Counted from the first letter of the stretch, positions 1,262 through 39,615 are shown. The stretch is DNA of 64,000 nt from Flaviaesturariibacter aridisoli (GCF_004343705.1 NZ_SKFH01000008.1:1-64000), one strand, 5' to 3'. Translations and numbers: made by a program. The notes: generated by a model from the letters alone, not told the origin.

Positions 1262-1501
1262 CCAACGGCTGTTTTTTGCCGCTGCGCGCTGCAGCAGCCC
1301 GCCAACGATCGTTTTTTCGTTGCTGCACGCTGCAGCAGCCTTCCGATAGCCGTTTTTTGCCCGCTGCACGGTGCACGAAGCTTCCGACGTTCGTTTTTGG
1401 GCGCTGCACGGTGCAGGAAGAAAAAAACGGGTGTTTTTTGGGTGCTGCAGCGTGTAGGAAGGGAAAAACGACCGTTTTTGCGCTGCTGCCTTGTGGAGGG
1501 G
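1262..1501. repeat. tandem array, ~41-bp unit x6
   Basis: Degenerate units, each with CGTTTTTTG followed by GCTGCACGCTGCAGCAGC (contains GCTGC/GCAGC inverted repeat). Spurious ORFs on both strands cross it. Confidence 0.85.
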
Positions 1502-1569
1502 TTCGGCGGAAGCTGGAATCTGCAAAAAGAGAGCGGAAACTGCCCATCATGAGACAGCGAATCGGAGAA

Positions 1570-1610
1570 TTTGCTTAAAATCTGCAAATAATCGAAAAAA
1601 TATGTTTGTG
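1570..1610 (+). promoter_or_regulatory. putative Bacteroidetes-type promoter for the abiL-like operon
   Basis: TATGTTTG (TAnnTTTG -7 box) at 1602-1609 with TTG upstream, ~45 bp before the ATG at 1652. Confidence 0.4.
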
Positions 1611-1651
1611 GCTTCGGCGCTCCTACTACCTTAGCAGGTATAACCCATCCT

Positions 1652-2935
1652 ATGTTTATTGATTTCAGTGTCAAGAATTTCCGTTCAATCAAGGACTTGC
1701 AGACGATCAGTTTCGTAGCGACGGGACTAAAAAGCCCGGAGCAATATGTAGAAGTGGATCGGAACAATATAGTTAACGAGGGCGAGTTGCGATTACTGAA
1801 AACGGTTGGGATTTATGGGGCTAATGCGTCAGGAAAGAGCAATGTGGTGCTAGCATTAGATCGATTCATGGAAGCTATTTGGAGCGAGGCGAGCACTGAA
1901 TCAAATCTGGACGAATTATTTCAGCCTTTTCTTTTTCAAACTGACAGGGAGAATACGGATATTTTTTTCCAAGTTAATTTTCTACTCGAAGGGAAAAAGT
2001 ATAGATACGGGTTCACGGTTAAAAAGAATATGGAATACGATGGCGATAATAAAAATAGTCGCCATATTATTTCCAGTGAGTGGCTTTTCGGGCCGAAAGA
2101 GAAAAATGTTGTCCCTCTTTTTACAAGAAAAGGACTTGAAATCAAAAAGGATAAACTAGCGAATCATGAACGTATTCCCCCTTTGCAATATCCGCACACT
2201 CTTTTTCTGACTCATGCTTCTGCGTTTGATCGTGAGAGTATTTGTACGGAAGTGAGAGAATTTCTCAGACTCTACACTTTATCGAATGTCAACTTCAAGG
2301 AGCTAGCGCTCTTCCGAAGGAGTGCATTAAATCTTATTGAAGATGAGGGACGGAAGGAACCATTTCTTGCGATGATGTCAGCCTTCGGACTGCCTTACGA
2401 CGATGTTATCGTGGAGCGTGGTGGCGATGATGATTCTAAGGTTGTGTCGTTGGATAAGATTTTTCTAACTCGAAATGTGGTTGCTTCGGATGGTAAGGTC
2501 TATCCGGTAAAATTGAATTTAGGAACAACCGAGTCGGAGGGCACTCGTAAGCTTTTCGATTTATTAGGGCTGATTTATCGCGCTTTTGATTCTGTCGATC
2601 CAGCCATGTTTATTTTGGATGAGATCGATAGCAATTTCCATCCTAGCCTTTTGATTCATCTTCTAAAGATGTTCAACAATCCTGAGATAAATAAGAGTAA
2701 TTCTCAGTTGTTATTCACAAGTCATGATACAAACTTGATGTCGCCATCAATTATGCGTAGGGATCAATTCTTCTTTGCGGAAAAGCTGGATGAGGCAACG
2801 AAGGTTTTTAGTCTGTCCGACTTAAGGGGTATTCGAAATGATGCGGATTTCGCCCGTATGTATCTTTCTGGACTGTTGGGGGCAAAGCCAATTTTGCACG
2901 ACTATAAATTTATTGATAGCGATGGAAGTAATTGA
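1652..2935 (+). CDS. AAA_21-type ATPase (AbiLi-like abortive-infection ATPase)
   Basis: N-terminal MFIDFSVKNFRSIKD..IYGANASGKSN Walker A typical of the AAA_21/AAA_15 SMC-like ATPase family. Low-GC gene in high-GC genome. Overlaps downstream RloB-like gene. Confidence 0.85.
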   Translation: MFIDFSVKNFRSIKDLQTISFVATGLKSPEQYVEVDRNNIVNEGELRLLKTVGIYGANASGKSNVVLALDRFMEAIWSEASTESNLDELFQPFLFQTDRENTDIFFQVNFLLEGKKYRYGFTVKKNMEYDGDNKNSRHIISSEWLFGPKEKNVVPLFTRKGLEIKKDKLANHERIPPLQYPHTLFLTHASAFDRESICTEVREFLRLYTLSNVNFKELALFRRSALNLIEDEGRKEPFLAMMSAFGLPYDDVIVERGGDDDSKVVSLDKIFLTRNVVASDGKVYPVKLNLGTTESEGTRKLFDLLGLIYRAFDSVDPAMFILDEIDSNFHPSLLIHLLKMFNNPEINKSNSQLLFTSHDTNLMSPSIMRRDQFFFAEKLDEATKVFSLSDLRGIRNDADFARMYLSGLLGAKPILHDYKFIDSDGSN

Positions 2936-3671
2936 ACCTTGGGATCTACAGGCTGATTCAGTTAGAAGTTCGGATACTGTTAATAATGTTATCATTTTCT
3001 GTGAAGATGATGCCGTTGAGCCAACTTACTTTCAGGACTTTGGTACCCCTAATTTGCATGTCAGTATTAATAGGAATTACAAGCAGCATCACTTTCATGT
3101 AGATGCCGTTGTAGAACATTTTCGGGCAATAGGAATGTTGGAGTTTGTAGACGGTGTAGAACGTTTGAAAATTGATGAAGGGAGTTATGTGTGGTGTGTT
3201 TTCGATCGAGATAAAGCCCCGGATAAAGCCGACGCGGCTTTCAATTTATCTATAAGGAATGCGGAAGATATGGGCGTTCGAGTTGCTTGGAGCAATGATA
3301 ATTTCGAGCTTTGGCTCCTACTACATTTTGAAAATGTTCCTTTGGATAATCCAACTTTTGAACATAGGGATACTTATTATGGTCGTTTGACTGAAATCGT
3401 TGCTGAAGGGCCAGCTGTTAATTCTGCACATCAGGCAATACTAAATCAAATTGCAGCTGGCGCTCCAACGTACAGTTATTACAATTGGATGAAGAGTGAG
3501 TCAAATTTTAAAAATGTTACTAGACATTTATTAACGGGTCTCACATCCGATGCCATACAACGGGCAAGGGCCTTACACGATCATTTCTCAACGCCAGCAA
3601 GACCACCGCACCAAATGATGCCGTGCACGCTGGTCTATCAATTGGTAGAGCAATTACTGAGCCTGCAATAA
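2922..3671 (+). CDS. RloB-like / Toprim-like protein (AbiLii-like)
   Basis: Internal ATG overlapping stop of upstream ATPase by 14 bp. VIIFCEDDAVEP and VWCVFDRD acidic motifs typical of RloB (pfam13707) Toprim-like partners of AAA_21 ATPases. Low GC. Confidence 0.7.
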   Translation: MEVIEPWDLQADSVRSSDTVNNVIIFCEDDAVEPTYFQDFGTPNLHVSINRNYKQHHFHVDAVVEHFRAIGMLEFVDGVERLKIDEGSYVWCVFDRDKAPDKADAAFNLSIRNAEDMGVRVAWSNDNFELWLLLHFENVPLDNPTFEHRDTYYGRLTEIVAEGPAVNSAHQAILNQIAAGAPTYSYYNWMKSESNFKNVTRHLLTGLTSDAIQRARALHDHFSTPARPPHQMMPCTLVYQLVEQLLSLQ

Positions 3672-11614: not shown

Positions 11615-11682
11615 CCGCCGAATATCCGGATAAATCATTCCCGGCCGCGCAGAAATTTGCCGCGATCACCTAGGTTTGCGCC

Positions 11683-15969: not shown

Positions 15970-16165
15970 AGCGTCCCTACTTTGCAGCGCAAACAAAAAC
16001 GCATACATCGTGAACCGCTATCAACTCCATACAATCGAAATGAAAAGCTTCGCACCCCTGGGTGAGAGCTTTGGCGGGGACTGTATCGCGGTCTGGTAAA
16101 AACAACTACCGAAACGCATTATACAAAACCCCGCGGCGCCTGCAGCGGGGTTTTTTCTTGTTGCT
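15970..16165 (+). ncRNA. candidate small RNA (promoter to terminator, ~170 nt), identity unknown
   Basis: TTG...TACTTTGC (TAnnTTTG box) near 15975-15997. Ends at hairpin CCCCGCGGCGCCTGCAGCGGGG + TTTTTT (16127-16165). No ORF. Confidence 0.35.
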
Positions 16166-16359
16166 GCCGCCCGGTCGAAATAAAGAAACGCGCACGCTAA
16201 AAATGAATTTGTGTAAACCGAATCGTACATCAGCCATCCAGGGACCCATAGGTCTGCCCACGGAGTTTCGCGCTGCATTCCGCAGCCTGCGCAGCCGCCT
16301 GGCCACCCTATGCCCCAACGCGGAGACCATTCCTCCTTTCTGCTAGCCGCAACGGCTTC

Positions 16360-16393
16360 GGAAGGCCCGGTCCCCGCACAGGACCGGGCTTTT
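16360..16393 (+). terminator. rho-independent terminator
   Basis: GCCCGGTCC-CCGCACA-GGACCGGGC followed by TTTTTGTT. Confidence 0.55.
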
Positions 16394-16633
16394 TGTTACG
16401 CTAAACCCGAAGCCATGAAATTTCTCCTCATCACACTCGCCATTACCGCGCTGTTCCGCTACCTGCTGCCGGAACGCACGGGAAAAACATAAGGCCCCCG
16501 GGCCAAAAAGCTTCCCCAACGGGAAGACAGGTATCCCGTCGGAGATCCAAACCAAGGTGAGGGTTTCCAACGCCCCGCAGTGCGGCCCGCATCGGTTGCC
16601 GTATGCTGTTGCCTCCGAGGCGGTACCTGCCAA

Positions 16634-16722
16634 CCACTGCCGCAAGGCAGACTCGTGTTGCGGGTTCGAATCCCGTTTCCACTTCGGGTGGAATAGCTCA
16701 ACGGTAGAGCAGGGCACTGTTA
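16634..16722 (+). ncRNA. circularly permuted tRNA-like element (T-arm / capped acceptor helix / D-arm); candidate YrlA-type Y RNA module
   Basis: GCGGG-TTCGAAT-CCCGT T-arm (16660-16676). Then TTTCCAC-TTCG(G)-GTGGAA helix with UUCG-type cap (16677-16693). Then TA-GCTC-AACGGTA-GAGC-A D-arm (16694-16711). Preceded by CTGCC-GCAA-GGCAG GNRA hairpin. No anticodon arm. Confidence 0.45.
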
Positions 16723-17013
16723 ACGCTCGATGGAGCCGGCCGCTCCCAAAACAGGCCAGCCAAATAAAAGCACGGTTCGCAAACCGGTTGTGCATCGCCG
16801 TTAGCAGCGATGATGCAGCACTCCGGTAGCAGCCTGTAGCCGGTAGGCAGCCCGGCGCCGCACGATCCGCCTCGCAAGCTTACCCGCAGCTCCAGCGCTG
16901 CGGCGCTTCCAGAGCCGCTTCACAACGCGCCCCGCTGCCGCCGTCTCCGCCGCCACCCGAGGGAAAGCGAGCCGTGCTTTTTTAAACAACTGAAACGAAT
17001 AAAAACGATAGCA

Positions 17014-18159: not shown

Positions 18160-18232
18160 TGGCCTGTAGCTCAATGGTAGAGTACGCGCCTCTTAAGCGT
18201 GGGGTTGTGGGCTCGCGTCCCACCGGGCCAAC
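18160..18232 (+). tRNA. tRNA-Lys (anticodon CTT), atypical T-loop
   Basis: Cloverleaf folds by eye: acceptor TGGCCTG/CGGGCCA, D-arm GCTC-AATGGTA-GAGT, anticodon stem CGCGC/GCGTG with loop CTCTTAA, T-stem GTGGG/CCCAC. T-loop is CTCGCGT rather than TTCRANT. Coordinates +/-1. Confidence 0.6.
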
Positions 18233-18235
18233 GAA

Positions 18236-18308
18236 GGACAAATAGCTCCAATTGGTAGAGCAGCGGATTGAAGCTCCGCCCGTGCAGGTTCGAGTCCTGC
18301 TTTGTCCA
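18236..18308 (+). tRNA. tRNA-Phe (anticodon GAA)
   Basis: GGACAAA acceptor, GCTC-CAATTGGTA-GAGC D-arm, GCGGA-TTGAAGC-TCCGC anticodon arm, GCAGG-TTCGAGT-CCTGC T-arm, TTTGTCC-A 3' end. Confidence 0.85.
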
Positions 18309-18405
18309 CTGATCAAACCGGTAGCGGACCGGGGTGCCAGGGGCACTGAAAGTCGAAAATGGATGAACCGGCCGCCGCACGGCCACAATCAAAAAGGAGG
18401 CGTTT

Positions 18406-20541: not shown

Positions 20542-21996
20542 ATGGCAAAATTGAAAATGACCGGAAAGGAGCTTCGCGGCATCGGTTACCCAGAGTCGCC
20601 GGTGATCTCGATGGCCATGGGGCTGATGGAAAAGCACTACAAGCATTCCTCGCTCGATGAGGCGTTGAAGATCCTTTCGAATATCAAAGAAGCGCCGGCC
20701 GACTACCTGGAGCACCCGGTGCTGGGCAAGATCGCGGCGCAGCTGCTCCCGAAGCCGGCAGCGGAAGGCGCCGAAGTGTCGCTCAATTCGAGCGGCATTA
20801 CGTTCTCCGTGTTCGGATCCGAAGGCATCGAGGCCGGGGCGCTGCACCAGATGTACACCGCGGCCAAGCTGCCCGTGGCGGTGGCGGGCGCCCTCATGCC
20901 CGACGCGCATTCGGGCTACGGCCTGCCTATCGGGGGCGTGCTGGCCACCGACAACGCCGTGATCCCCTATGGCGTGGGGGTAGACATCGGCTGCCGGATG
21001 TGCCTCTCCGTGTTCGACTTGCCCGAAAAGGACCTCGAGGCGAAGACCGGGTTTTTCGCACGCACCATCCAGGAGAATACCGTCTTTGGTTCGGGCGGTC
21101 AGCTGGCCCGGGCCGCCGACCACGAGGTGCTGCACAGCAACCTGTTCAACGAGATCGGCCTGCTCAAAGGGCTGCACGGCAAGGCCTGGAAGCAACTCGG
21201 CACTTCGGGCTCGGGCAACCACTTCGTGGAGTTCGGGGCGGTCACCGTAGACGAGTTCGACCCGGTGCTGGGCGTACCGGCGGGCACCTACCTGGGCCTG
21301 CTGTCGCACTCGGGCTCGCGGGCGCTGGGGGCAAACATCGCCAACCACTACACGAAGCTGGCCAAACAAAAGCGGCGCCTGCCGGCCGAAGCCTCGAACC
21401 TGGCCTGGCTGGGACTGGATGAAGCAGAAGGCATGGAGTACTGGCTGGCGATGAACCTGGCTGGCGACTATGCCGCGGCATGCCATCATGTGATCCATGA
21501 AAAAGTGGCGCGGGCCCTGGGCCGCCGGCCGCTGCGGCGGGTGGAGAACCACCACAATTTCGCCTGGAAGGAGCCGTGGGAGGGGCGCGAGGTGATCGTG
21601 CACCGGAAAGGCGCCACCCCGGCGGGCGCGGGCGTGCTGGGCATCATCCCCGGCTCGATGACCGCCCCCGGCTTTATTGTAAAGGGCAAAGGCGAGCCGG
21701 CCTCCGTGCATTCGGCTTCCCACGGCGCCGGCCGGCGGATGAGCCGCACCGCGGCCCTGCAGTCGATCTCCCACGCCGCGCTGCAGGAGCAGCTGCGCGC
21801 GCAGGGAGTGACCCTGCTCGGGGGCGGGCTCGACGAGGCACCGATGGCGTATAAAGACATCCACGCCGTGATGGCCGCCCAGGAGGCGCTGGTGGAAGTG
21901 CTGGGAACCTTTCAGCCGCGCATCGTGCAGATGGATGGTACGCCGCCGAAGCCGTGGATGAAGAAGGGAAAGGGGGAGGAAGTGCCGGGAGCGTAA
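20542..21996 (+). CDS. rtcB: RNA-splicing ligase RtcB
   Basis: MPDAHSGYGLPIGGV, GSGNHF and ASHGAGR RtcB metal/GMP-binding motifs. 484 aa. Confidence 0.9.
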   Translation: MAKLKMTGKELRGIGYPESPVISMAMGLMEKHYKHSSLDEALKILSNIKEAPADYLEHPVLGKIAAQLLPKPAAEGAEVSLNSSGITFSVFGSEGIEAGALHQMYTAAKLPVAVAGALMPDAHSGYGLPIGGVLATDNAVIPYGVGVDIGCRMCLSVFDLPEKDLEAKTGFFARTIQENTVFGSGGQLARAADHEVLHSNLFNEIGLLKGLHGKAWKQLGTSGSGNHFVEFGAVTVDEFDPVLGVPAGTYLGLLSHSGSRALGANIANHYTKLAKQKRRLPAEASNLAWLGLDEAEGMEYWLAMNLAGDYAAACHHVIHEKVARALGRRPLRRVENHHNFAWKEPWEGREVIVHRKGATPAGAGVLGIIPGSMTAPGFIVKGKGEPASVHSASHGAGRRMSRTAALQSISHAALQEQLRAQGVTLLGGGLDEAPMAYKDIHAVMAAQEALVEVLGTFQPRIVQMDGTPPKPWMKKGKGEEVPGA

Positions 21997-22391
21997 GTCG
22001 GGAAGCCGGAAGTCGGATCTCGGAAGTTGGTTTTCGCCGGTCACTTCCAACTTCACACTTCCGGCTTGCTTACTTAAAAAAAGAAACTCCTGTAAAAACA
22101 GGAGTCGTCACCTAAACCAACTGCATGTTGAGAAAGGGACAATGCCAGGAAGGCATTATGTATCTCGAGCAGAGCTACGAAGGTGGGGTTTTCCGGTGGA
22201 TAATGCGTGCTTTTTTTTCGCCGATTGATTTATTTAGTTGTTAAGACGCCCAATTGGGCGGATGGGCTGTTCCTTTTGCCTGAGTGTAAGGCGTTTAGAA
22301 GCCGGGGAAAAACTCCCGGGAGGGGAGGCGGCGGTCCGAAAAAAGACGGCGCGGGTCCACAATCCTTATTTTTACCGCAATTCGCGCAACT

Positions 22392-24975: not shown

Positions 24976-25245
24976 ACTGGAAAGTAAGCAAGTGGGAAGT
25001 CGGAATTGCAATGCCCACTTTGAACTTCCGACTTTAAAACTTTTAGTTATGGCCTACGGCGTGCTCATCTGCGGGTTAGGGTCGGAGCTTGCAAAAAATC
25101 GCTGATGCCTGATGGCGGATTTCTGATGTAGATCAGAGGTAAAGAAGAGAGTAATGAACTGTGTCTTGAAATCAGACATCCGAAATCAGGCATCCGACAG
25201 CTCCCTCTTGGCAGGTGTTTTGTTTAAGGTAGGCTAAACTCGGTT

Positions 25246-26984: not shown

Positions 26985-28394
26985 ATGTATATCCAGCAAT
27001 TGTACACCGGTTGCCTGAGCGAAGCCGCTTATTATATCGAAAGCAACGGGGAAGCCGCTATTGTGGACCCCCTGCGCGACATCGACGCCTACCTGCAGCT
27101 CGCTGCCGAACGCAAGGCCACCATTAAATACATCTTCGAAACACACTTCCACGCCGACTTCGTGTCGGGCCATATCGACCTGGCCAAAGCCACCGGCGCC
27201 ACGATCGTTTACGGTCCGGATACCGAAACCCGCTTGCCGGTGCACATTGCCCGCCACGGCGAGGCCTTTCGCATCGGCGCCCTCACGGTAACGGTGCTGC
27301 ACACCCCCGGCCACACGCTCGAGTCGTCGTGCTACCTCCTCACCGATGAGCAGGGCAAAGAACATTGCCTCTTCACCGGCGACACGCTCTTTGTTGGCGA
27401 CGTAGGCCGCCCCGACCTCGCCCAGAAAGGTGCCGACCTGACGATGGAAGACCTCGCCGGCATGCTCTATGACTCCCTCCACAAGCACATCCTGACCCGT
27501 CCCGACGACGTCATCGTATACCCGGCGCACGGTCCTGGCTCCGCCTGCGGCAAGAGCCTCGGCCCCGAAACCTTCAGCAGCATCGGTCAGCAAAAGGCAA
27601 CGAATTACGCCCTGCAGCCGCAAACAAAGGCCGAGTTCGTGCAGGCCGTTACCGACGGACTGACCGCGCCCCCGCAATATTTTCCCATCAACGCCCGCAT
27701 CAATAAAGAAGGCTATGAAGAGCTCGACAGCGTGCTGGCCAAAGGCCTTACCCCGCTGAGCGTGGCCGATGTCAAGGCGGCGCTGGAGCGCGACGCCCTG
27801 CTGCTCGACACCCGCCACGCCTCGGTGTTTACGGAAGGATTCGTGCCGGGCTCGGTGTTCGTGGGCCTCGAAGGCCGCTTTGCCGAATGGGCCGGGTCGC
27901 TGCTACCCTACACGGGCGAGATGATCCTGCTGACGGAGCCCGGCAAGGAGCGCGAAACACTGGTACGCCTCGCCCGCGTGGGCTTTCAGAACGTGATCGG
28001 TTACCTCGAAGGCGGATTCGAAGCCTGGCAAAAAGCCGGCGAAGCCATCGACCTCATCATCGATGTGGACGTTGACGAGCTGGCCATGGACCTGCCCTTT
28101 GATGAGAACCTGCTGGTGGTCGACGTGCGCAAGCCCGCCGAATTTGCCGAAGGCCATGTGAAGGATGCACAAAACCTTCCGCTCAACGATATGACTGACC
28201 CGGCCCTGCTGGCCCAGTTTGAAGACGAGCAGAACCTGTACGTGCATTGCCAGGGCGGCTACCGCAGCGTGATCGCCATTTCGCTGATGAAGCGCCAGGG
28301 TATTCATAACGTCCGCAACGTACTCGGCGGCTGGAACGCCATCAAGAAGGAGGAAAAGATCAGGACCGAAAAGGAAAGCAGCGTGCTGAATTGA
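26985..28394 (+). CDS. MBL-fold persulfide dioxygenase-like hydrolase fused to two rhodanese domains (Blh/CstB-like)
   Basis: HFHADFVSG and TPGHT metallo-beta-lactamase motifs. C-terminal CQGGYRS rhodanese active-site loop. Confidence 0.8.
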   Translation: MYIQQLYTGCLSEAAYYIESNGEAAIVDPLRDIDAYLQLAAERKATIKYIFETHFHADFVSGHIDLAKATGATIVYGPDTETRLPVHIARHGEAFRIGALTVTVLHTPGHTLESSCYLLTDEQGKEHCLFTGDTLFVGDVGRPDLAQKGADLTMEDLAGMLYDSLHKHILTRPDDVIVYPAHGPGSACGKSLGPETFSSIGQQKATNYALQPQTKAEFVQAVTDGLTAPPQYFPINARINKEGYEELDSVLAKGLTPLSVADVKAALERDALLLDTRHASVFTEGFVPGSVFVGLEGRFAEWAGSLLPYTGEMILLTEPGKERETLVRLARVGFQNVIGYLEGGFEAWQKAGEAIDLIIDVDVDELAMDLPFDENLLVVDVRKPAEFAEGHVKDAQNLPLNDMTDPALLAQFEDEQNLYVHCQGGYRSVIAISLMKRQGIHNVRNVLGGWNAIKKEEKIRTEKESSVLN

Positions 28395-28395
28395 T

Positions 28396-28500
28396 CGCTG
28401 ATGTCGGATTTCTGATGTCGGATTTAGAAAGAGATCGCATTGCGATCTCTTTTTTTTACGCTTACATCAGATATCAGACATCAGCGATTTTTGCCGTTGG
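28396..28500. terminator. large palindrome with central terminator hairpin
   Basis: GATCGCTGATGTCGGATTTCTGATGTCGGATTT / AGAGATCGCATTGCGATCTCT + TTTTTTT / inverted copy of first arm. Confidence 0.6.
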
Positions 28501-28869: not shown

Positions 28870-29163
28870 ATGACGCCAGAGGAAAATCGTTTCCGCGCCA
28901 TCGGCGGCGCCTTACCCGGGGCCGAAAGCGGCCAGTTGTTCGGCAAGCCCTGTTTCAAAATGGGCGGTAAGGCCTTTACCTGTTTTTTCCAGAACGAAAT
29001 GGTGTTCAAGCTCACGGGACCGGCCCATGCCGGCGCCCTCGCCGTACCCGGCGCCCGCCTGTTCGATCCTTCCGGCAAGGGCCGTCCCATGAAAGAATGG
29101 GTGCAGGTGCCGCCGGCAGGCGATTGGGAAAAGCTGGCCCGCGTGGCCGCGGGCATTGAATAA
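28870..29163 (+). CDS. small hypothetical protein (97 aa; possibly MmcQ/YjbR-like)
   Basis: ORF in AT-poorer island with preceding low-GC leader; weak family recall. Confidence 0.35.
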   Translation: MTPEENRFRAIGGALPGAESGQLFGKPCFKMGGKAFTCFFQNEMVFKLTGPAHAGALAVPGARLFDPSGKGRPMKEWVQVPPAGDWEKLARVAAGIE

Positions 29164-29237
29164 TGTCTATTGAATAATGTCTATTGTATAACGAGGATGT
29201 TCCCCTTATTCAATATTCAATAGACATTAATGATTAT
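29164..29237. repeat. AT-rich palindromic spacer between convergent genes
   Basis: AATGTCTATTGAATAATGTCTATTG ... CAATAGACATTAATGATTATTCAATAG. Confidence 0.6.
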
Positions 29238-30116
29238 TCAATAGAGCACCGGTCCATACTCCGGCCGCCATTCGTGCTTCCAGCGGCGGTGGCTCCAGAG
29301 CCATAGCTCGGGGTTGGCCGACATCACCTCTTCGAGGTAGCGGGCGTATTGCACCGTCAGCGCGCCCTCCGGCAGCTGCGCCGGGTGCAGCGCCGCGAGC
29401 CGGATGTGGCCTACATAATGCCCCCGGCTCTTCTTGGTAAAGTGCGCGAAGAAAACCGGCAGGTCGTTGCGGCGCGCGGCCATCTCTGGTGTTTTCAGGA
29501 AGCCCGTGGGGCGGCCGAAAAACTCCACCCAAAAGGCCCGTGCGGGAATCGCGGGGCTCTGGTCGGCTACCAGACCGAGAATGTATTGCTTTCCGCGGAA
29601 GGGCAGCATCTCCTCCCGCATGCGCGTGGCCGCCACCAGCTTTACGCCCGACCGCGAGCGGATCTTCCGGAACAGGCGGTCCACCGGCTTCGACTTGATC
29701 GGAAGGTAAACGCCTACGTGGGGCTCCGGCATCAGCGCCGGCACGCCCAGGTTCACCAGCTCCCAGTTGAAGTTGTGGCCCAGGTGGAATTGCACCGAGC
29801 GGCCGTCGCGGTAAACGTCGTGCAGCACCGAGAAGTCGGCCTCGAGGTGCTTCCTGAAAAAACGCGGCGAGGCGCTGATGAACTTGATGGTTTCGATAAA
29901 GGTGTCGGTGAAATTCCGGTAGAATTTTTTAGCGATGGTTACGCGCTCGGCCTCCGTCTTGTGCGGAAAAGCGATGCGGAGGTTATCGAGCACCACCTGC
30001 TTGCGGTAGCCCATAATGTGGTACACCAGCCCATAGGCCGCGTCGGAAAACAGGTACAGCACCCGCAGGGGCAGGAGCGACACCAGGTAGAGGAAGCCGT
30101 ACAGGAGGTAATACAC
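29238..30116 (-). CDS. lysophospholipid/lipid A acyltransferase (LpxL/HtrB family)
   Basis: N-terminal TM anchor, HxxxxD-like region, ~290 aa typical of LpxL-type acyltransferases. Confidence 0.7.
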   Translation of the reverse strand: MYYLLYGFLYLVSLLPLRVLYLFSDAAYGLVYHIMGYRKQVVLDNLRIAFPHKTEAERVTIAKKFYRNFTDTFIETIKFISASPRFFRKHLEADFSVLHDVYRDGRSVQFHLGHNFNWELVNLGVPALMPEPHVGVYLPIKSKPVDRLFRKIRSRSGVKLVAATRMREEMLPFRGKQYILGLVADQSPAIPARAFWVEFFGRPTGFLKTPEMAARRNDLPVFFAHFTKKSRGHYVGHIRLAALHPAQLPEGALTVQYARYLEEVMSANPELWLWSHRRWKHEWRPEYGPVLY

Positions 30117-30198
30117 GGAGCGAAGTTAGCAAGTCGGAAGTCGGAAGTGCGAAGTATTGCTTTTCTTCCGACTTCGCACTTCCGACTTAACTACTTTT

Positions 30199-31857
30199 TT
30201 AGAGGATGATGTTCTGCACCAGCTCTCCGTGTTGCGGGTAATCGGTGTTGTAGTGCAGGCCGCGGCTTTCCTTGCGGAAGGAAGCGCCCTTGGTAACGAG
30301 GTAGCCCACCGTGATCTGGTTGCGCAGCTCGAGCAACTGCGGCGACACCGTAGTACTACGGTACAGGTCCTCGGTCTCGTCGAAGAGGAGGTCGATGCGC
30401 TTCATGGCGCGGGCGAGGCGCACGTTGTTGCGCACGATGCCCACGTAGTCGCTCATCACCTGTTGCAGCTCTTTGAGGCTTTGGGTGATGAGGATCATCT
30501 CCTTCGGCTCGGCGGTGCCCTGGGCGTTCCAGTCGGGGATCGCGGGCAGCTCGGGGAGCGCCTCAAAGCGGCGCACGGCGTCTTCAAAGCAGCGGTGGGC
30601 AAACACCATGGCCTCGAGCAGCGAGTTGGAGGCGAGGCGGTTGGCGCCGTGGAGGCCGGTAGACGCGCATTCGCCGCAGGCATACAGGTTGGCGATGGAG
30701 CTGTGGCCCCATTGGTCGGTCTTGATGCCGCCGCAGCTGTAGTGCGCCGCCGGCGCCACGGGAATCATCGCCGTGGCCACATCGATGCCCAGGGAAAGGC
30801 AGCGCTCGTAGATGTTGGGAAAGTGCTCCTTGAATTTTTCGATATCCATATGGCGGCAGTCGAGCCACACGTGCTCGGTGCCGCCGATTTTCATTTCGCT
30901 GTCGATGGCGCGGGCCACGATGTCGCGCGGGGCGAGGTCCTTGCGGGCGTCGTAGCGCTCCATAAAGGCTTCGCCGGCGCCGTTGCGCAGGATGCCGCCG
31001 TCGCCGCGCACGGCCTCGGTGATGAGAAAGGCCTGCCCGCGCCGGCCGGCCTCGTAGAGCGCCGTGGGGTGAAACTGAATGAACTCCATGTTCTCGATGC
31101 GGCCCTTGGCGCGGTAGACCATGGCCACGCCGTCGCCGGTGGCGATGGCAGGATTGGTGGTGGTACGGTACACCTGGCCGTTGCCGCCGGTGGCCAGCAG
31201 CGTCAGCTTCGACAGCACCTTCTCGATGCGGTTGGTGACCATGTTGAGCACGTATACGCCGTAGCAGCAGATATCGGGCGTGCTTTTCGTAACCAGGTAG
31301 CCGAGGTGGTGTTGGGTGATGATATCCACCACGAAGCAGTGCTTCACGATGTGGATGTTGGGGGTGTTTTCTACCGCGGTGAGCACGGCGCGTTCCATCT
31401 CCTTGCCCGTTACGTCTTTGTAGTGGAGGATGCGGTACTCGGAGTGGCCCCCCTCGCGACCGAGCTTGTAGGAGCCTTCGGCGTCCTTGTCGAACTGGGC
31501 GCCCCAGTCGATGATCTCCTGCACGCGGGCGGGGCCTTCCTTTACCACGATCTCCACCACATTGGGGTCGCAGAGGCCGTCGCCGGCGATGAGTGTGTCT
31601 TCGATGTGCTTGGCGAAGGAATCGTTCTCCAGGTCGTTCACGACGGCGATGCCGCCCTGGGCGTACTTGGTGTTCGTTTCATCCGCCGCCGCCTTGGTGA
31701 TGATGGTCACGCTCCGGTCGGGAAAACGCTGCGCCACCTTGAGCGCGTAAGTGAGGCCGGCGATGCCGGAGCCGATGACGAGGAAGTCGGCCCCGGCCCC
31801 CTGCCCCCCGAAGGGGGCACTTAGGTCAGTACTGTCCGTTATGTTTTGTGCTTTCAT
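30199..31857 (-). CDS. nadB: L-aspartate oxidase
   Basis: DFLVIGSGIAGL FAD fold, RHMDI...HYSCGGI...NRLASNSLLE NadB/SdhA-family motifs. First 12 codons lie in a MITE-like insertion. Confidence 0.85.
   Translation of the reverse strand: MKAQNITDSTDLSAPFGGQGAGADFLVIGSGIAGLTYALKVAQRFPDRSVTIITKAAADETNTKYAQGGIAVVNDLENDSFAKHIEDTLIAGDGLCDPNVVEIVVKEGPARVQEIIDWGAQFDKDAEGSYKLGREGGHSEYRILHYKDVTGKEMERAVLTAVENTPNIHIVKHCFVVDIITQHHLGYLVTKSTPDICCYGVYVLNMVTNRIEKVLSKLTLLATGGNGQVYRTTTNPAIATGDGVAMVYRAKGRIENMEFIQFHPTALYEAGRRGQAFLITEAVRGDGGILRNGAGEAFMERYDARKDLAPRDIVARAIDSEMKIGGTEHVWLDCRHMDIEKFKEHFPNIYERCLSLGIDVATAMIPVAPAAHYSCGGIKTDQWGHSSIANLYACGECASTGLHGANRLASNSLLEAMVFAHRCFEDAVRRFEALPELPAIPDWNAQGTAEPKEMILITQSLKELQQVMSDYVGIVRNNVRLARAMKRIDLLFDETEDLYRSTTVSPQLLELRNQITVGYLVTKGASFRKESRGLHYNTDYPQHGELVQNIIL
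31789..31826. repeat. dispersed repeat copy B (inside 5' end of nadB)
   Basis: GGCCCCGGCCCCCTGCCCCCCGAAGGGGGCACTTAGG; encodes SAPFGGQGAG within nadB. Confidence 0.8.
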
Positions 31858-31952
31858 CTTATGGTAGTTTCAAAAATACAGATGGTTCGCTACGCGAACC
31901 ATCAATTACGCCATTGGAATGAAGACTGATTGAAATAAAGAAGAATGACCGA

Positions 31953-31987
31953 CCAAAGTGCCCCCTTCGGGGGACAGGGGGCCTAAT
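31953..31987. repeat. dispersed repeat copy C (inverted relative to B)
   Basis: Reverse complement TTAGGCCCCCTGTCCCCCGAAGGGGGCACTTTGG. B and C bracket a 126-bp AT-rich segment containing the nadB ATG. Confidence 0.8.
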
Positions 31988-32703
31988 TTAAAAGTTCCTG
32001 CCGCAGCGCCTCGGCGCTTTTCCTGGGTGCGCGGGGTGGGGTGATGTGGTTGAGGAGGCCGAGGGAGAGAAGCAGCTGTGCGACGCCGTAAGTACCGATG
32101 ATCAGCAGGCTGTGGGCGGTGCTTGTTTCTTTCCAGTAAAAACGGGTGAGCGCGAGCACCGAGTCGGAGGCCACGAAGAGGAGGGCGCCACCGAAAAGGA
32201 GGCCCGCGCTGCGCCGGTTCTTGAGACGCACGAGCTGCAGCGCCATCGCCAGCATAAGGGAGATGACGGCGCCATATGCCAGCACCGGCAGGCGCAGCGC
32301 GCCGAGGTGCTCATAGAGCAGGGTGATGAGGCACACGTAGTACGTGGCCACGGGCACGAGCATCAGCGGGCGAAAGCGCAGGCCCTTTTGCTGCCGCAAC
32401 TGGATGAAGGCGATCGCGTAGGCGATCTGCGCCAGCAGGAAAGCGGCGATACCGGCGATGAAGTAGCCTTCGCTGGAGCGCAGCAGGAGCACATCGCCCA
32501 CCCAGGAGGCGGCGAGGGCGGCCAGCAGCAGCACCTTCAGGCGCGTGGTGAAGTGGGGCGTGTTGTTGAGCACCATCCCGATCAGTAGCAGCGTGAGCAG
32601 CGGCTTGCTGAACACGCGCAGGCCGTCGTCGTGCATGAAGATGAACACCCCGTCTACGAGGAGCGCCGCGATGAAGAAGAGGGACCAGTAGAGTCGTTTC
32701 ATA
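31983..32703 (-). CDS. lysoplasmalogenase (YhhN/TMEM86 family) membrane protein
   Basis: Multi-TM, ~240 aa, YhhN-like hydrophobic pattern. Start at MKRLYW. Confidence 0.65.
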
Positions 32704-32773
32704 TCGTGAAGCGTGAGGCGTGAGGCGTGAGGCGTGAGGCGTGAGGCGTGAGGCGTGAGGCGTGAGGCGTGAA
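32704..32773. repeat. heptanucleotide tandem repeat (GCGTGAG)x8-9 abutting start codon
   Basis: Perfect 7-bp repeats 1 bp upstream of the ATG. Inverted partial copy CCCCTCACGCTTCACG at 32876-32893. Confidence 0.9.
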
Positions 32774-32892
32774 AATTTGGGTTACGTAAGGTACTGCTTA
32801 ATCGTAGCAAAAATCATATCCGCGTTAATCATCTCGATCCTATAAAATCTGCGTTCTTTCTCTTCTCACAACTGACCCCTCACGCTTCACGA

Positions 32893-34953
32893 TCATGCTT
32901 CCACCAGCGGCTCCACCCAGGCCCCGGCTTCCTTCAGCAGCCCGATCAGTTCTTCCACGGCCACTTCGCTGGGGACGTTGCGCTTCACCACTTCCTTGCC
33001 TTTATAGAGCGTGATCTTGCCCGGGCCGCTGCCTACGTAGCCGAAGTCGGCGTCGGCCATCTCGCCGGGCCCGTTTACGATGCAGCCCATAATGGCGATC
33101 TTGACGCCCTTCAGGTGGTGGGTCACGGCGCGGATCTTCGCCGTGGTTTCCTGGAGGTCGAAGAGGGTGCGGCCGCAGGAGGGGCAGGAGATGTATTCCG
33201 TTTTGGAAATGCGTGTGCGCGTGGCCTGCAGGATGCTGAAGGCCGTGTTGTTGAGAAACTGGGCGTTGCTGCCCACTTCCATATAGGTGCGGCCTGACAC
33301 GCGGCTGTTGTGCAGCTTCGACGGGTCGTTCATCAGCCACACGCCCTTGCCGATGCCGTCGAGCAGCAGGGTGCCGGCGGTGGTGGCGAAATCGATCAGT
33401 TGTTCGTCGACGGTGCTGCTGTGGCTTTCGGCGCCGATCACGACCGGGAGGCGCGCCGGCAGGGCGGCGACAAAGGCCCGGATATCGGCTGTAGGGTTGG
33501 CGCTGCTGGCATACACGCATAGCACGATTTTGGCGCTGCCGGCTAACAGCGCGCCGAGCGATCCCGGGCTGGTAGCCGAGGCATCTACTGCGATGAAATT
33601 CAGTGCCGCCGCGAAATCCGGCTGCAGGCCGGCGGCGGACGCTTCCAAGAGCTTCGCCGCTTCAAAGAGCGGGTAGTGCCGCTCGAGCTCCGGCTTCCAT
33701 ACCGGGGCGTTGCAGATGACGCCGAGGGTTCCGGGCAGCGCGAAATCAATGACCTTGCTGGCCGTATAGATATAGTCGGCCGCGGAGTCGCCGATGTTCC
33801 ATTTGTCGAGCGCGGCGCTGTAGCGGTAGCCGATGGCGGCAAGGTCTTCCGGAGAAATGCGGTCGGCATGCATGTAGTCGGCAATGACGACGGGGACGGG
33901 GCTGCCAGCGACCGCCTCCCGCACCGACCCATCCTCCCGACCTCCTTCCCACGGGGAAGGAGGGGCAGACCTCACCCCCGACCTCCCGCTTTCGCGGGAC
34001 AGGCTCTCTCCAAAGGAGAGGGGGGCGCTTTGGCTCCCCGCCCCGCCCGGGGAGGGGCTGGGGTTTTTCAACGCTTCTACTTTTTTCACCAGGTCCTTGC
34101 AAACGGGCAGCTCGAACTCGGGGTCTTCGGTGAGCGACACGCGGATGGTGTCGCCGATGCCTTCCTGCAGGAGGGTGCCGATGCCAATGGCGCTCTTGAT
34201 GCGGCCGTCTTCGCCGTCGCCGGCCTCGGTCACGCCGAGGTGCAGCGGGTAGCATTCGCCGAACTCCTGCTCCATGTGCCGCACCAGCAGGCGGTAGGCT
34301 TCCACCATCACGATCGGGTTGGAGCTTTTCATGCTCAGCACGATCTGGTGGTAGTCTTCGGAGCGGGCGATGCGGAGGAATTCCATGGCGCTTTCCACCA
34401 TCCCGATGGCGGTGTCGCCGTAGCGGCTCATGATGCGGTCGGAGAGGGAGCCGTGGTTGGTGCCGATGCGCATGGCGGTGCCGTGCTCTTTGCAGATGCG
34501 CACCAGCGGCGTAAAGCGCTCGCGGATGCGGTCGATCTCTTCGGCGTATTCGGTATCGGTGTATTCGATCTGCTCGAACTTCTTTTTATCGACGTAGTTG
34601 CCCGGGTTCACGCGGACCTTTTCCACGATGCGGGCGGCGATCTCGGCGGCGTTGGGCGTAAAATGGATGTCGGCTACGAGCGGAACGTTGTACCCGCGGC
34701 GGTGCAGCTCGTCGCGGATGACGCGCAGGTTTTCGGCTTCCTTTTTCGAGGGGGCGGTGATGCGCACCAGCTCGGCGCCCGCCTCGATGCAGCGGATCGT
34801 CTGGGCCACGGTGGCCTCGGTGTCCATCGTGTCGGTGGTGGTCATCGTCTGGATCCGGATCGGGTAGTCGCCCCCCAGCCAGAGGTCGCCGATGCGGACG
34901 GGACGGGTGTGGAGCCGCTGGTACGAAGCGGTTTTTTCGGGTTGGGTCTGCAT
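32893..34953 (-). CDS. ispG: 4-hydroxy-3-methylbut-2-en-1-yl diphosphate synthase (flavodoxin), long-form
   Basis: GcpE N-terminal TIM-barrel motifs and C-terminal CPSCGRT...GCIVNGPGE 4Fe-4S motif. Large insert domain as in Bacteroidota/plant-type IspG. Confidence 0.9.
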   Translation of the reverse strand: MQTQPEKTASYQRLHTRPVRIGDLWLGGDYPIRIQTMTTTDTMDTEATVAQTIRCIEAGAELVRITAPSKKEAENLRVIRDELHRRGYNVPLVADIHFTPNAAEIAARIVEKVRVNPGNYVDKKKFEQIEYTDTEYAEEIDRIRERFTPLVRICKEHGTAMRIGTNHGSLSDRIMSRYGDTAIGMVESAMEFLRIARSEDYHQIVLSMKSSNPIVMVEAYRLLVRHMEQEFGECYPLHLGVTEAGDGEDGRIKSAIGIGTLLQEGIGDTIRVSLTEDPEFELPVCKDLVKKVEALKNPSPSPGGAGSQSAPLSFGESLSRESGRSGVRSAPPSPWEGGREDGSVREAVAGSPVPVVIADYMHADRISPEDLAAIGYRYSAALDKWNIGDSAADYIYTASKVIDFALPGTLGVICNAPVWKPELERHYPLFEAAKLLEASAAGLQPDFAAALNFIAVDASATSPGSLGALLAGSAKIVLCVYASSANPTADIRAFVAALPARLPVVIGAESHSSTVDEQLIDFATTAGTLLLDGIGKGVWLMNDPSKLHNSRVSGRTYMEVGSNAQFLNNTAFSILQATRTRISKTEYISCPSCGRTLFDLQETTAKIRAVTHHLKGVKIAIMGCIVNGPGEMADADFGYVGSGPGKITLYKGKEVVKRNVPSEVAVEELIGLLKEAGAWVEPLVEA

Positions 34954-35074
34954 TGGGGCAAAAGTACCGAACGAATCGGTTTAGGGTTTAGAGGTTTAGA
35001 AAGGTTTAGGGGTTTAGAAGGGTTTAGAAAGGTTTGGGGGTGTGCCTGTTCCCTCCTCTTGTCGCAAAATACCC

Positions 35075-35295: not shown

Positions 35296-35378
35296 AAGTA
35301 TCCCGGACGCCCCCAAATCCGAAATCCGAAATCCGAAATCAGAAATCTGAAATCAGAGATCCGACATCCTACATCTCC

Positions 35379-36940: not shown

Positions 36941-37036
36941 TGCGGCGCTTTCTGTAAATATCACGCCAAAACGGATTGCGGATTTCAGATCCCGGATTTC
37001 AGATTTCAGATTTTGGAGGCCGGATTCTTATTCAGG

Positions 37037-37490
37037 GCAACCGCTAGCATGCCGGAGGCATGCACGCTCGATAGCCCGGCATACCATGCCGGGATAACGC
37101 GGTTGGCCGATTCGGGGCATGCCGGAGGTATGCGCGATGTGCGGCGATTCCCGGTTTCCGTCCCGGGATTGCATCCCGGGTGGTGAAACGCGCATGCCTC
37201 CGGCATGCATGGGCGCCATCCTTCTTTCCGTCCCGGGATTGCATCCCGGGTTGTGAAACGCGCATGCCTCCGGCATGCAGGGACGCCATCTGTCTTTTCG
37301 TTACCGGGGTTGCATCCCGGGTGGTGAAACGCGCATGCCTCCGGCATGCAGGGATGCCATCCGTCTTTTCGTTACCGGGATTGCATCCCGGGTTGTGAAA
37401 CGCGCATGCCACCGGCATGCATAGATGCCATCCGTCTTTCCGTCCCGGGGTGCATCCCGGGTTGTGAAACGCGCATGCCTCCGGCATGCT
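37037..37490. repeat. tandem array, ~70-bp unit x6-7, each with two hairpin palindromes
   Basis: Unit GCATGCCTCCGGCATGC...CCCGGGATTGCATCCCGGGTTGTGAAACG. Spurious repeated-peptide ORFs on both strands. Confidence 0.9.
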
Positions 37491-37628
37491 CCGAAAAGCG
37501 CGCGAGACAGCAGGCGGGCCGTACACAATGCGTGCATCCGCCACACGAAGCGCCCCGCTTTCGGCGGGGCGTGCATAAAAAATCGGTAAAGACTCCTGAC
37601 TCTTAAATCCTGAATCTGAGATCTGAAT

Positions 37629-38435
37629 TCATTTCTGTCCCTTCAGGTATCCCAGCTTCGTCAGAATGCCTTTCAGCATGTTCATCCGCACGGTGGGTAC
37701 GTCCACGCCGGGTTTGAGGGTTTCGAAGTTGAGCGCGAAGAAGTAGGGGTGGTTGTTTTCTTCCACCCAGCCCACGACCCAGGCGAGGTCGCGGCCGTTT
37801 TCCTTTTTACCCCAGCCCGTCTTATAGGCAAGGCGGTAGGCGGGGGTGCTTTCGAAGAGCATCGCGCGCTTCACGATCTCCTGGTTGGTCTTGAAGAAGG
37901 GCAGCTGGTTGAAGTAGAGGCGCTTCACGAGGCCGAGCTCTTCGTCGGGGCGGATCTTGAGGGAATTGTCGAGCCAGAAAGTGTCCACTTTGGAGATCTT
38001 CTTGTTGCCGTAGGCGAGCGAGTCGAGCCAGCGCTGCATGGTATCGCGGCCGATGCGGCGGGCGGCTTCCTGGTACCAGGCCGGGCAGGAGCGGCGAAAG
38101 GCGGTGTACATACTCATGTCGGCATCGCACTCGGTGCGGCCCGAAGGCACGCCGTTCCAGCGGATCACCATCGAGTCGTTGCTGATGATGCCCGTTTGCA
38201 GCCCGACGAGCGAGTTGACGATCTTGAAGGTGGAGGCGGGCGTAAAGGCGCTGTCGCGGAAGCGCGGCAGGTTGTACATCGTAAAGGCGCCGGTGGCGTT
38301 GTTGAGCACGGCAAAGCAGCCTTCGGTGCCGTTGTCGCTGAAGAATTTGCCGAGCGAGTCGTCGGTGGTCACGTTGTTGGTGGAGCAGCCGGCCAGGAGG
38401 AGCACGGCTGCAAATGAAGCAAGAATGGTGCGCAT
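37629..38435 (-). CDS. class D (OXA-type) beta-lactamase
   Basis: Signal/lipobox MRTILASFAAVLLLAGCS. STFK active-site serine box, YGN, KTG, WxxG motifs. Confidence 0.85.
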   Translation of the reverse strand: MRTILASFAAVLLLAGCSTNNVTTDDSLGKFFSDNGTEGCFAVLNNATGAFTMYNLPRFRDSAFTPASTFKIVNSLVGLQTGIISNDSMVIRWNGVPSGRTECDADMSMYTAFRRSCPAWYQEAARRIGRDTMQRWLDSLAYGNKKISKVDTFWLDNSLKIRPDEELGLVKRLYFNQLPFFKTNQEIVKRAMLFESTPAYRLAYKTGWGKKENGRDLAWVVGWVEENNHPYFFALNFETLKPGVDVPTVRMNMLKGILTKLGYLKGQK

Positions 38436-38451
38436 GGGCGCAAAGGTAGGG

Positions 38452-38642
38452 CACGCGGAAAACGCGGAAGACGCGGAATCTTTTTTGGTAGCAGTTTCCA
38501 ATTGTTCCGTACCTATTCCAGTTGGAAAACCTTGTGGGTGGTAGCGTCCTATAAAAAAGGGAACTGCTTTCAGAAGGCAACTCCATACCTGAAGAGCACT
38601 TCCAAAAGAAACGCCTTCCGCGTCTTCCGCGTTTTCCGCGTG
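38452..38642. repeat. perfect 27-bp inverted repeat pair bracketing 137 bp, 17 bp upstream of bla ATG
   Basis: Left arm CACGCGGAAAACGCGGAAGACGCGGAA (38452-38478); right arm is its exact reverse complement (38616-38642). Arms are three 9-bp ACGCGGAAN subrepeats. Confidence 0.9.
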
Positions 38643-38703
38643 TCCATCCTCGCCGCTATATGCGGGATTATCCTCATCTTTAGCCTCCAAAACTGATTGC
38701 GTC

Positions 38704-39615
38704 ATGCGTTTTCTCTCCGCCCTGCTGCTCGCGGGCATCGTAGCCCTCGCTTCCTGCAAAAAGAATACAACCGCCGAGGAGCGGGCCCAGCTGATCTTCA
38801 AGTTCCGCTTCGACAGCACGCAGGTGCGGCTCAACAACGTGGGGCAACCCAACGGCCTCGGTGTGGGCAATGCCGCGCAGAGTCCCGTTTTTAACGGGAT
38901 GAGCGCCCACTACCTCGAGCTGGCGCCCACGGCCCATACGCCCCTCGGCACCGGCGTGGTGCTGTACCGCGCCGACGAAACGACCGCCGGCGGCGCACTC
39001 GCCATCGACTTCAGCAAGGCCAGCGTGGTGGGCAACAACGGCGTCTTCCTCAGCGTACCGCTCAGCGACGTTCCCCCCGGCGAATACGAGTGGCTCCGCA
39101 CTTCGCTTGCCTACCAGAATTTCGACGTCAAGTATTACGTAGACGATACGGTGGCCGGTATGCCCATCCGCCAGGAATTCATGGGCACCGTGGCCGGGTT
39201 CATCGGTTTCAACAACTACATCACGTCGTTCCGCATCAAGGACACGGCCATCACCGTCAACAAGAACCGCCCGCAGGGCTTCTGGGGCTTCGAGTCGCAG
39301 GTGCGCTACGGGGGCTACAACTTCCGCATCGTAGATACGGCCACCGCCGCGGCGGGTGCCACCACCGTGGTCAACCCGCTCTTCGCCACCTCGCCCGTTC
39401 CGGCAGGCTCCTGCGTGGTCACGGCTGCCTTTGCGCCGGGCCACCTCGTCATCCGTGGCGACGAAACGAAGAACATTATCGTAGAAGTGTCGCTGTCCAC
39501 CAACAAGAGCTTCGAATGGAACGAGGTGGTCCGCGACGGCCGCTGGGAACCCGGCAAGGGCGAAACGGTGCAGGATATGGGGATCCGGGGCATGATCCCC
39601 CGCGTGCTGCCGTAA
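38704..39615 (+). CDS. hypothetical lipoprotein
   Basis: Lipoprotein signal MRFLSALLLAGIVALASC. No motifs. Confidence 0.5.
   Translation: MRFLSALLLAGIVALASCKKNTTAEERAQLIFKFRFDSTQVRLNNVGQPNGLGVGNAAQSPVFNGMSAHYLELAPTAHTPLGTGVVLYRADETTAGGALAIDFSKASVVGNNGVFLSVPLSDVPPGEYEWLRTSLAYQNFDVKYYVDDTVAGMPIRQEFMGTVAGFIGFNNYITSFRIKDTAITVNKNRPQGFWGFESQVRYGGYNFRIVDTATAAAGATTVVNPLFATSPVPAGSCVVTAAFAPGHLVIRGDETKNIIVEVSLSTNKSFEWNEVVRDGRWEPGKGETVQDMGIRGMIPRVLP

Follow-up and report, generated by a model that had tools for sequence, protein, structure and literature searches.

An inverted repeat of tandem nonamers beside a class D beta-lactamase gene of Flaviaesturariibacter aridisoli, and its probable origin as a replaceable intergenic cassette

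Is the long, perfect inverted repeat directly upstream of an OXA-type beta-lactamase gene (bla) of Flaviaesturariibacter aridisoli a promoter switch, a mobile element or an operator? The question arose from a sequence-only reading of a 64,000-nt stretch of the genome (the window; positions are counted from its first letter), according to which any of the three would make beta-lactamase expression switchable or driven by a mobile element. The answer that we favour, with a probability of about 0.55, is that the repeat belongs to a MITE- or REP-like intergenic repeat element whose family is that of Flaviaesturariibacter-like Chitinophagaceae.

The repeat and the promoters on either side

The repeat was confirmed as first described: perfect 27-nt arms, 137 nt apart, each composed of three 9-nt ACGCGGAAN units (Table 1), which Tandem Repeats Finder reports as period-9 arrays of 2.9–3.0 copies. 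Arm identity is perfect over exactly 27 nt and the sequences differ immediately inside and outside these borders; imperfect complementarity extends to 35 nt (38444-38478 / 38616-38650, 91%). The 27-nt inverted repeat is far beyond chance. With up to three mismatches allowed, the arm matched the window at two places, which are the arms themselves, and two matches were never obtained in 100 shuffles. The window has ten ACGCGGAA octamers, and the arms account for six of them. When folded as RNA, the region reaches -99.4 kcal/mol (z = -8.0 against shuffles); as DNA, it reaches -56.5 kcal/mol (z = -8.6). The nested palindromes that had been noticed between the arms are present but weak, for example 38483-38499 / 38559-38575, with 17 nt at 76%.

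The sequence between the arms appears to be peculiar to this locus in the collections searched. A BLAST search with the inner 137 nt in the window and a set of related loci gave no second copy, nor did a metagenome scan, in which the arm pair matched only two unrelated contigs, and BLAST of the element against plasmids gave no match. At the gathering threshold, Rfam recognized only two tRNAs in the whole window, and at a permissive threshold it gave chance-level matches only for the element and three copies from F. amylovorans (described below); there is no tRNA or tmRNA in the segment.

The repeat sits in a 268-nt gap between bla and a divergently transcribed lipoprotein gene. The bla product matched the class D model with an E value of 1.6e-63 and 214 bits, a score under the 250-bit cut-off of that model. 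The lipoprotein gene is followed by an ECF sigma factor gene, and an ECF sigma/anti-sigma pair is conserved beside it. It had been stated that the right arm ends just short of the bla ATG. This wording holds on the sense strand of bla, whereas in window coordinates the left arm adjoins the ATG, with 16 nt in between (38436-38451), and the right arm is 61 nt from the lipoprotein ATG.

Both core promoters can be placed relative to the arms. There are 20 occurrences of the Bacteroidota -7 consensus TAnnTTTG in the window, 13 of them in non-coding DNA, which makes up about 15% of the sequence, and most of these non-coding boxes are 4–43 nt upstream of a same-strand start codon. The gap contains a single exact match, TACCTTTG at 38448-38441, which is kept in position at all seven orthologous loci with bla-proximal sequence read; its distance to the ATG is 4–5 nt in the relatives, with the exception of L118 (L numbers denote related loci), where it is 18 nt from the annotated ATG. 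On the opposite side, (C/T)ATCTTTA followed by CCAAAAC is conserved at the lipoprotein box, a putative promoter element, in all seven relatives where that side was read. The cassette lies between two divergent core promoters, not around one. A sigma-70-type promoter scan yielded no site; the model is not appropriate for Bacteroidota. As a separate observation, exact TAnnTTTG boxes are found 4–5 nt upstream of the ATG not only at bla but also at gcpE (34959-34966) and at the gene at 11683 (11671-11678), which would imply leaderless or nearly leaderless mRNAs.

Table 1. Features of the gap between bla and the lipoprotein gene (window coordinates)
Feature	Position	Strand	Details
Class D (OXA-like) beta-lactamase gene (bla), 268 aa	37629..38435	-	NCBIfam bla_class_D_main; ATG at 38435
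bla -7 box TACCTTTG	38441..38448	-	Exact TAnnTTTG; 5 nt from ATG, 3 nt outside left arm
Nearly complete family copy, pointing at bla	38449..38566	-	nhmmer model 36-160, E = 2.6e-12
Whole non-coding cassette, imperfect outer tips included	38450..38650		201 nt; borders from comparison with L001
Left arm CACGCGGAAAACGCGGAAGACGCGGAA, (ACGCGGAAN)x3	38452..38478	+	Adjoins bla; covers about -16 to -42 of bla promoter
Inner segment, 137 nt	38479..38615		About 45–50% G+C; single-copy; no RNA family; no exact -7 box
3' fragment of second family copy, toward lipoprotein gene	38586..38652	+	nhmmer model 96-167, E = 2.4e-10
Right arm, exact reverse complement of left arm	38616..38642	-	Faces lipoprotein gene
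Lipoprotein -7-like box CATCTTTA	38675..38682	+	32 nt outside right arm, 21 nt from ATG
Divergent lipoprotein gene, 303 aa	38704..39615	+	ATG at 38704; no family match

Perfect arms of this length and spacing, placed around a spacer of lower G+C directly upstream of a resistance gene in a Bacteroidota host, have the geometry of an inverton. In such a system, a recombinase encoded elsewhere would flip the 137-nt segment, switching bla or the lipoprotein gene on and off, and repeated recombination would also maintain the perfect identity of the arms. Several observations speak against it. First, the inner segment has no exact TAnnTTTG on either strand. It does hold a one-mismatch box that points at bla, TTCTTTTG (38610-38603, minus strand); however, about one such box in 274 positions is expected by chance, as calculated from the motif, and a single one is at chance level. 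Second, the exact bla box and the conserved lipoprotein box are both outside the arms. Since the arms cover -16 to -42 of the bla promoter, flipping the part between them would leave both core promoters unchanged. Third, a Pfam or NCBIfam scan of about 50 window proteins, which took in nearly all window ORFs of more than 130 aa, revealed no tyrosine or serine recombinase and no transposase. Fourth, the inner segment is flipped in none of eight related loci, where the cassettes are replaced, absent or different. Fifth, about 20 different inverted repeats with unrelated sequences are present in the 64 kb, and one or a few invertases could not serve all of them. We therefore regard inversion at this site as highly improbable, and the switchable expression of bla that had been proposed finds no support here.

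Other roles for the arrays were tried and rejected. As -33 promoter elements they would be poorly placed, with the distance from array end to -7 box varying (2–12 nt in five cases) and no TTTG at the expected distance. As intrinsic terminators they do not fit this locus either, with a single array folding into a stem of at most 4 bp and the gap being divergent. A CsrA-type decoy was considered on account of the GGA motif present in many units, but the motif is missing from several; to our knowledge, Bacteroidota generally lack CsrA.

The gap in relatives and a family of elements

The best relatives of bla are found in a MAG (98%), in F. terrae (84%) and in F. amylovorans (73%). BatB/BatC-type VWA and TPR genes are downstream of bla in all nine relatives, and the divergent lipoprotein gene is upstream of it in seven; L119 has other genes there and in L120 the contig ends. 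In L001 (bla 98%), the flanks are 94.5% (37631-38449) and 93.9% (38651-39128) identical to those of the window, and in place of window 38450-38650 there is an unrelated 131-nt block, without homology to the cassette and without any long-range repeat. Inverted repeats of GAATATCG-type units are found in L002 (bla 88%) and L003 (84%), and L120 (80%) has one arm of such units, its contig ending before any second arm. In L117 (81%), the gap carries a 29-nt, 97% inverted repeat of CACGGAA units. L121 and L122 (both 75%) are empty, with a 62-nt gap that contains both boxes and a CTATATGC segment. Finally, in L118 (F. amylovorans, 73%) and L123 (71%), two full ACGCGGAA elements stand back to back with their arrays outward, the arms measuring 32 nt at 88% and 37 nt at 81%, respectively.

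Unit types at the same gene pair include ACGCGGAA, CACGGAA, GAATATCG and ATCTGCGT, or none at all, and cassette type changes at least four times on the bla protein tree. Both arms change unit type together between lineages, with complementarity kept. On this comparison, the 201-nt block is a discrete polymorphism of presence, absence and replacement, and one with a rapid turnover. The cassette is also dispensable, as shown by a relative in which both the element and any inverted repeat are missing.

Position and complementarity raise the possibility of a selected cis-element, along the lines of the multimeric operator that the triple subrepeats had called to mind. Thus, the arrays might bind a protein, or a cruciform or hairpin might tune or insulate the divergent promoters, with bla and the lipoprotein gene being co-regulated. 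The three direct units of each arm are mirrored and end directly upstream of the bla -7 box; an inverted repeat occupies this position in six of the seven lineages with the gap fully read, its sequence changing while its complementarity stays; the gcpE -7 box likewise has arrays just ahead of it, in F. terrae as well as in the window (34978-35041); and the sigma/anti-sigma pair remains beside the lipoprotein gene. Complementarity that is kept while units change could equally reflect selection for structure. Nevertheless, L121 has the same gene pair across a gap of 62 nt without the element, and the L001 gap manages without a long-range repeat. Furthermore, arrays of this kind are also found against the stop codons of unrelated genes, and relatives sharing the flanking gene order have different units, the sigma factor gene included, which together argue against a bla-specific operator. 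Sites conserved with the regulated genes across relatives, the mark of an operator, are not seen at this gene pair. In addition, a 9-nt period keeps successive sites off one face of the DNA helix, which makes a turn every 10.5 bp or so, and no binding protein is known. A selected role of this kind thus seems to us quite improbable.

The reading that we prefer, an intergenic repeat element, draws on the copies in F. amylovorans, where the two full elements at the bla gap are accompanied by at least eight more at four other loci. Both ends are common to ten elements at these five loci. With a length of about 165 nt, the full element is directional: from 5' to 3', it consists of a single unit TTCCGCGTTTTATCC, a variable core, an A-rich stretch, (TTCCGCGTN)x3 and GCC(CC). 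The core is poorly conserved, with a TTTTA motif about 45 nt in. Four back-to-back pairs are found among the ten copies, and the arrays point outward at the neighbouring genes, ending within about 0–12 nt of a -7 box or a stop codon, except for one copy that is about 50 nt from a -7 box. An nhmmer profile built from these ten elements gave two matches to the family in the F. aridisoli gap (Table 1) and matched nowhere else in the 64-kb window. In the copy that points at bla, the 5' part of the element is missing, and with it the 5' single unit. We thus take the window cassette to be a shortened back-to-back family pair, with the 27-nt repeat as its two array ends. A scan of representative genomes for the triple unit returned 111 stretches, mostly coding 9-nt repeats in Actinobacteria, together with several intergenic loci of F. 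amylovorans.

How far does this agree with a mobile element, the second possibility raised at the outset? The cassette is a short non-coding element with terminal inverted repeats, its borders as given by the L001 comparison coincide with the repeat tips, and L121 and L122 provide the empty site. Copies sharing their ends number at least ten in F. amylovorans, with one composite copy in the window. The claim that bla stands beside a repeat of mobile type is thus borne out by a discrete, replaceable block and a dispersed family. Mobility proper, however, is upheld only in part. Inspection by eye of the window copy and of the four F. amylovorans pairs revealed no target-site duplication, the inner sequence has no second copy, and no autonomous element or transposase with the same ends was found in the window or the related loci. 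Conserved ends with variable cores are also unlike a typical young MITE family, and vertical descent rather than mobility could explain why the window and F. amylovorans have this family at one and the same site.

Taking these points together, we propose that the inverted repeat represents the outward-facing ends of a non-coding cassette of about 200 bp (38450-38650), which might spread or be exchanged as a unit in the manner of a MITE or REP element. For a putative trans-acting protein, the 9-nt units may provide several binding sites, and repair or template switching in the hairpin may preserve the identity of the arms, a step that we infer because arm identity stops exactly at the arm borders. 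The effect on bla would then be passive: the cassette would set only what lies upstream of about -16, without any switching.

Inverted array pairs across the window and in other genomes

Hairpin-capable repeats are a general property of the intergenic DNA of this genome. Reverse-complement 10-mer pairs within 400 nt of each other occur at 13.0 per kb in non-coding DNA versus 0.67 per kb in coding DNA (about 19-fold), and such a pair is present in 18 of the 36 intergenic gaps of at least 50 nt in the window. Many of the arms are tandem arrays of unrelated 7–14-nt units, for example AAGTCGG, CGTGAGG and CTGATGTCGGATTT. The sequence-only reading had given, among the outcomes that would refute it, a generic palindrome found at many loci. 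The present result comes close to this: the class is generic, but the sequence is particular to each locus. Inverted array pairs of the same 9-mer are also found on contigs of Gemmatimonadota, Acidobacteriota, Verrucomicrobiota, Planctomycetota and others.

These pairs have a polarity. A count over the window and 12 related loci gave 22 inverted-repeat pairs with a G-rich 5' arm and 4 with a C-rich one, and the four exceptions are one REP-like pair and three short perfect palindromes with overlapping arms. An earlier measure, array G/C skew by half of the gap (16/22, p = 0.05), was replaced by this count per hairpin. The G-rich, C-poor polarity of the 5' arm holds for either strand; in other phyla, small samples look mixed. 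It can be observed at about 20 intergenic loci of the window (e.g., 21994-22076, 25104-25194, 28394-28488, 29155-29245, 30131-30188 and 32703-32893) and, outside it, at L001-L003, L117-L123, L024, L050, L069 and L105.

Alternatively, the inverted repeat at bla might have grown where it stands, as a quasi-palindrome, by replication slippage that expands units on one arm of a pre-existing hairpin and template switching that copies them to the other, with no transposition and no function. The confinement of perfect identity to exactly the 27-nt arms, the joint change of unit type on both arms across lineages, the many unrelated units that occur as inverted array pairs across the window, and the occurrence of the same 9-mer in such pairs in many phyla would all follow; moreover, arrays of 5–11-nt units are a described class of bacterial simple repeats (PMC4679880). 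Each arm is an intergenic array with a unit in this size range, albeit short by the standard of that class; no second strain with this cassette was encountered in which unit number could be compared. Against this account, the copies at five F. amylovorans loci, ten or more, share not only the unit but also the 5' end TTCCGCGTTTTATCC and the outer tip GCCCC, which implies dispersal of an element rather than independent local growth. In addition, undirected slippage and template switching should give G-rich and C-rich 5' arms equally, contrary to the count above, and the block has sharp boundaries relative to L001. We thus consider purely local growth unlikely. The two lines of evidence do not point the same way. 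The lack of a target-site duplication, the conservation of ends only, the sharp identity borders and the concerted change of units fit hairpin repair or template switching, whereas a protein-recognized, transposon-like element accounts better than undirected local growth for the uniform polarity and for the ends that the copies share.

A broader possibility is that the cassette belongs to a genome-wide class of intergenic elements, hitherto undescribed, which Chitinophagaceae and perhaps other soil phyla would possess. Its members would have polar, inverted ends made of 7–14-nt arrays, would fill gaps up to -7 boxes and stop codons, would keep their position while their sequence is replaced in concert on both arms, and would be moved or maintained by a dedicated protein, for which small GxxExxY PD-(D/E)XK-type genes enclosed by arrays are one candidate. 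We put this forward tentatively, and hold it to be doubtful in its full form. As regards these genes, arms of about 450 nt made of ACGCGGAA-type units enclose a GxxExxY (TIGR04256) gene in an Acidobacteriota MAG (L047, 4400-6000), a ACGCGGATC-array hairpin follows a GxxExxY gene on a Gemmatirosa plasmid (L124, 901-1392), and in Persicobacter (L125, 650-1460) a GxxExxY gene is within or beside inverted arrays of 7–9-nt units. A tblastn search with the acidobacterial protein against a set of the loci matched only the protein itself, and a literature search on the family found essentially nothing. On a metagenome contig (L115, 280-1300), ACGCGGAA arrays alternate in orientation every 230–260 nt, forming tandem hairpin modules.

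Several individual loci of the window deserve description. At 32703-32893, (CGTGAGG)x9.7 and a partly complementary right arm surround a 133-nt, AT-richer segment that includes TTTTATAGGA; the architecture is that of the bla-gap repeat, and the outer ends reach exactly to the neighbouring genes, at the start codon of one of the YhhN family (32702) and at the gcpE stop codon (32893). At the other end of gcpE, arrays of GGTTTAGA type (34978-35041) are 11 nt upstream of the -7 box TACTTTTG, itself 5 nt from the ATG. In F. terrae (L003, 9160-9280), the units at this gcpE position, AGAACCTT, are related to those of the window without being the same, and a GGTTTAGGA hairpin is found elsewhere in F. 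amylovorans (L118, 1470-1612). As at bla, the position of the gcpE arrays is conserved and the unit is lineage-specific.

Inverted heptamer arrays of AAATCCG / CGGATTT type (35315-35375 and 36972-37013; 33 nt at 85%) stand 1.6 kb apart and flank a two-gene VWA/TPR (BatB/BatC-like) unit, one abutting a stop codon and the other just upstream of a start. In the 664-nt gap between the bla stop and the start of the VWA gene, much of the space (37047-37500) is filled by 4.8 copies of a 71-nt unit with 91% matches, each copy carrying the palindrome GCATGCCGGAGGCATGC; among relatives, this gap ranges from 180 to 664 nt. A REP-like arrangement is seen at 31795-31983, where each arm of a 36-nt, 92% inverted repeat has a small hairpin GCCCCCCGAAGGGGGC; the left arm is inside the first 20 codons of an ORF predicted to be aspartate-oxidase-like, and the right arm directly adjoins the stop of the gene upstream.

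Away from these arrays, a low-G+C island at 1271-3671, with third-position G+C of 0.36–0.42 compared with about 0.8 elsewhere, carries genes for an AAA_21/AbiEii-type ATPase (1652-2935) and for an RloB-like protein (2838-3671). Tandem and inverted repeats of 41 nt (1271-1489) stand ahead of the pair, which has the look of a defence-type module acquired as two genes. A gap of about 1 kb (16009-17013), upstream of an SPFH/Band 7 gene and near two tRNA genes (18160-18309), is without a convincing ORF or Rfam match.

For resistance surveillance, the outcome is reassuring: the class D beta-lactamase gene is chromosomal and its neighbours are conserved across the genus, with no sign of phase-variable bla expression or of a mobile bla gene. 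The bla gap also offers a natural series for studying the origin, self-complementarity and turnover of intergenic repeats beside promoters, comprising an empty site, at least four cassettes that differ from one another, and members of one family in complete as well as shortened form. Inverton predictors that use inverted-repeat geometry alone would give many false positives in such genomes, and the polar, array-ended hairpins of this lineage deserve a genome-wide look.

Relation to known repeat systems

The Bacteroidales invertons share with the bla-gap repeat an inverted-repeat pair around a short segment upstream of a gene in Bacteroidota. They differ in that the boxes here are outside the repeat, no invertase is nearby, no second orientation was encountered, and the repeat is one of many that are unrelated in sequence.

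Among MITEs, the Correia elements of Neisseria are located near promoters. The 'BrickBuilt' MITE of Porphyromonas gingivalis carries minisatellite or tandem repeats (PMC4596501). Like both, the window element is a short non-coding sequence with a strictly intergenic position, carries inverted repeats at its ends, contains tandem direct repeats, is within tens of nt of genes, shows presence/absence polymorphism and, as for BrickBuilt, resides in a Bacteroidota host. Unlike them, it is without a target-site duplication, its copies share ends and not cores, its inverted repeats are built of tandem 9-nt units, and no related insertion sequence or transposase is known. Furthermore, cassettes here replace one another at one site, which is not a simple matter of filled and empty.

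The REP, BIME and REPIN sequences of proteobacteria are hairpin-forming intergenic repeats that often abut stop codons, form inverted pairs and are present in many copies per genome, and in all these respects the window element resembles them. A single REP, however, is an imperfect palindrome of 20–40 nt, whereas here each arm is a direct array and complementarity exists only between the two arms. In addition, there is no RAYT-type transposase gene in the window, and the arm sequences differ from locus to locus.

Finally, the arms themselves recall the long simple sequence repeats with units of 5–11 nt. The cyanobacterial STRR repeats are comparable simple-repeat arrays. The TAACTGA repeats of Beggiatoaceae, Cyanobacteria and some Bacteroidetes are heptamer arrays next to start codons (PMC4679880). 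Common to these 5–11-nt repeats and the bla-gap arms are tandem units of 7–9 nt, an intergenic position, often directly upstream of genes, and a patchy distribution across phyla. The former are direct arrays, with one inverted case listed (PMC4679880), whereas the arrays described here come as complementary inverted pairs with a uniform polarity.
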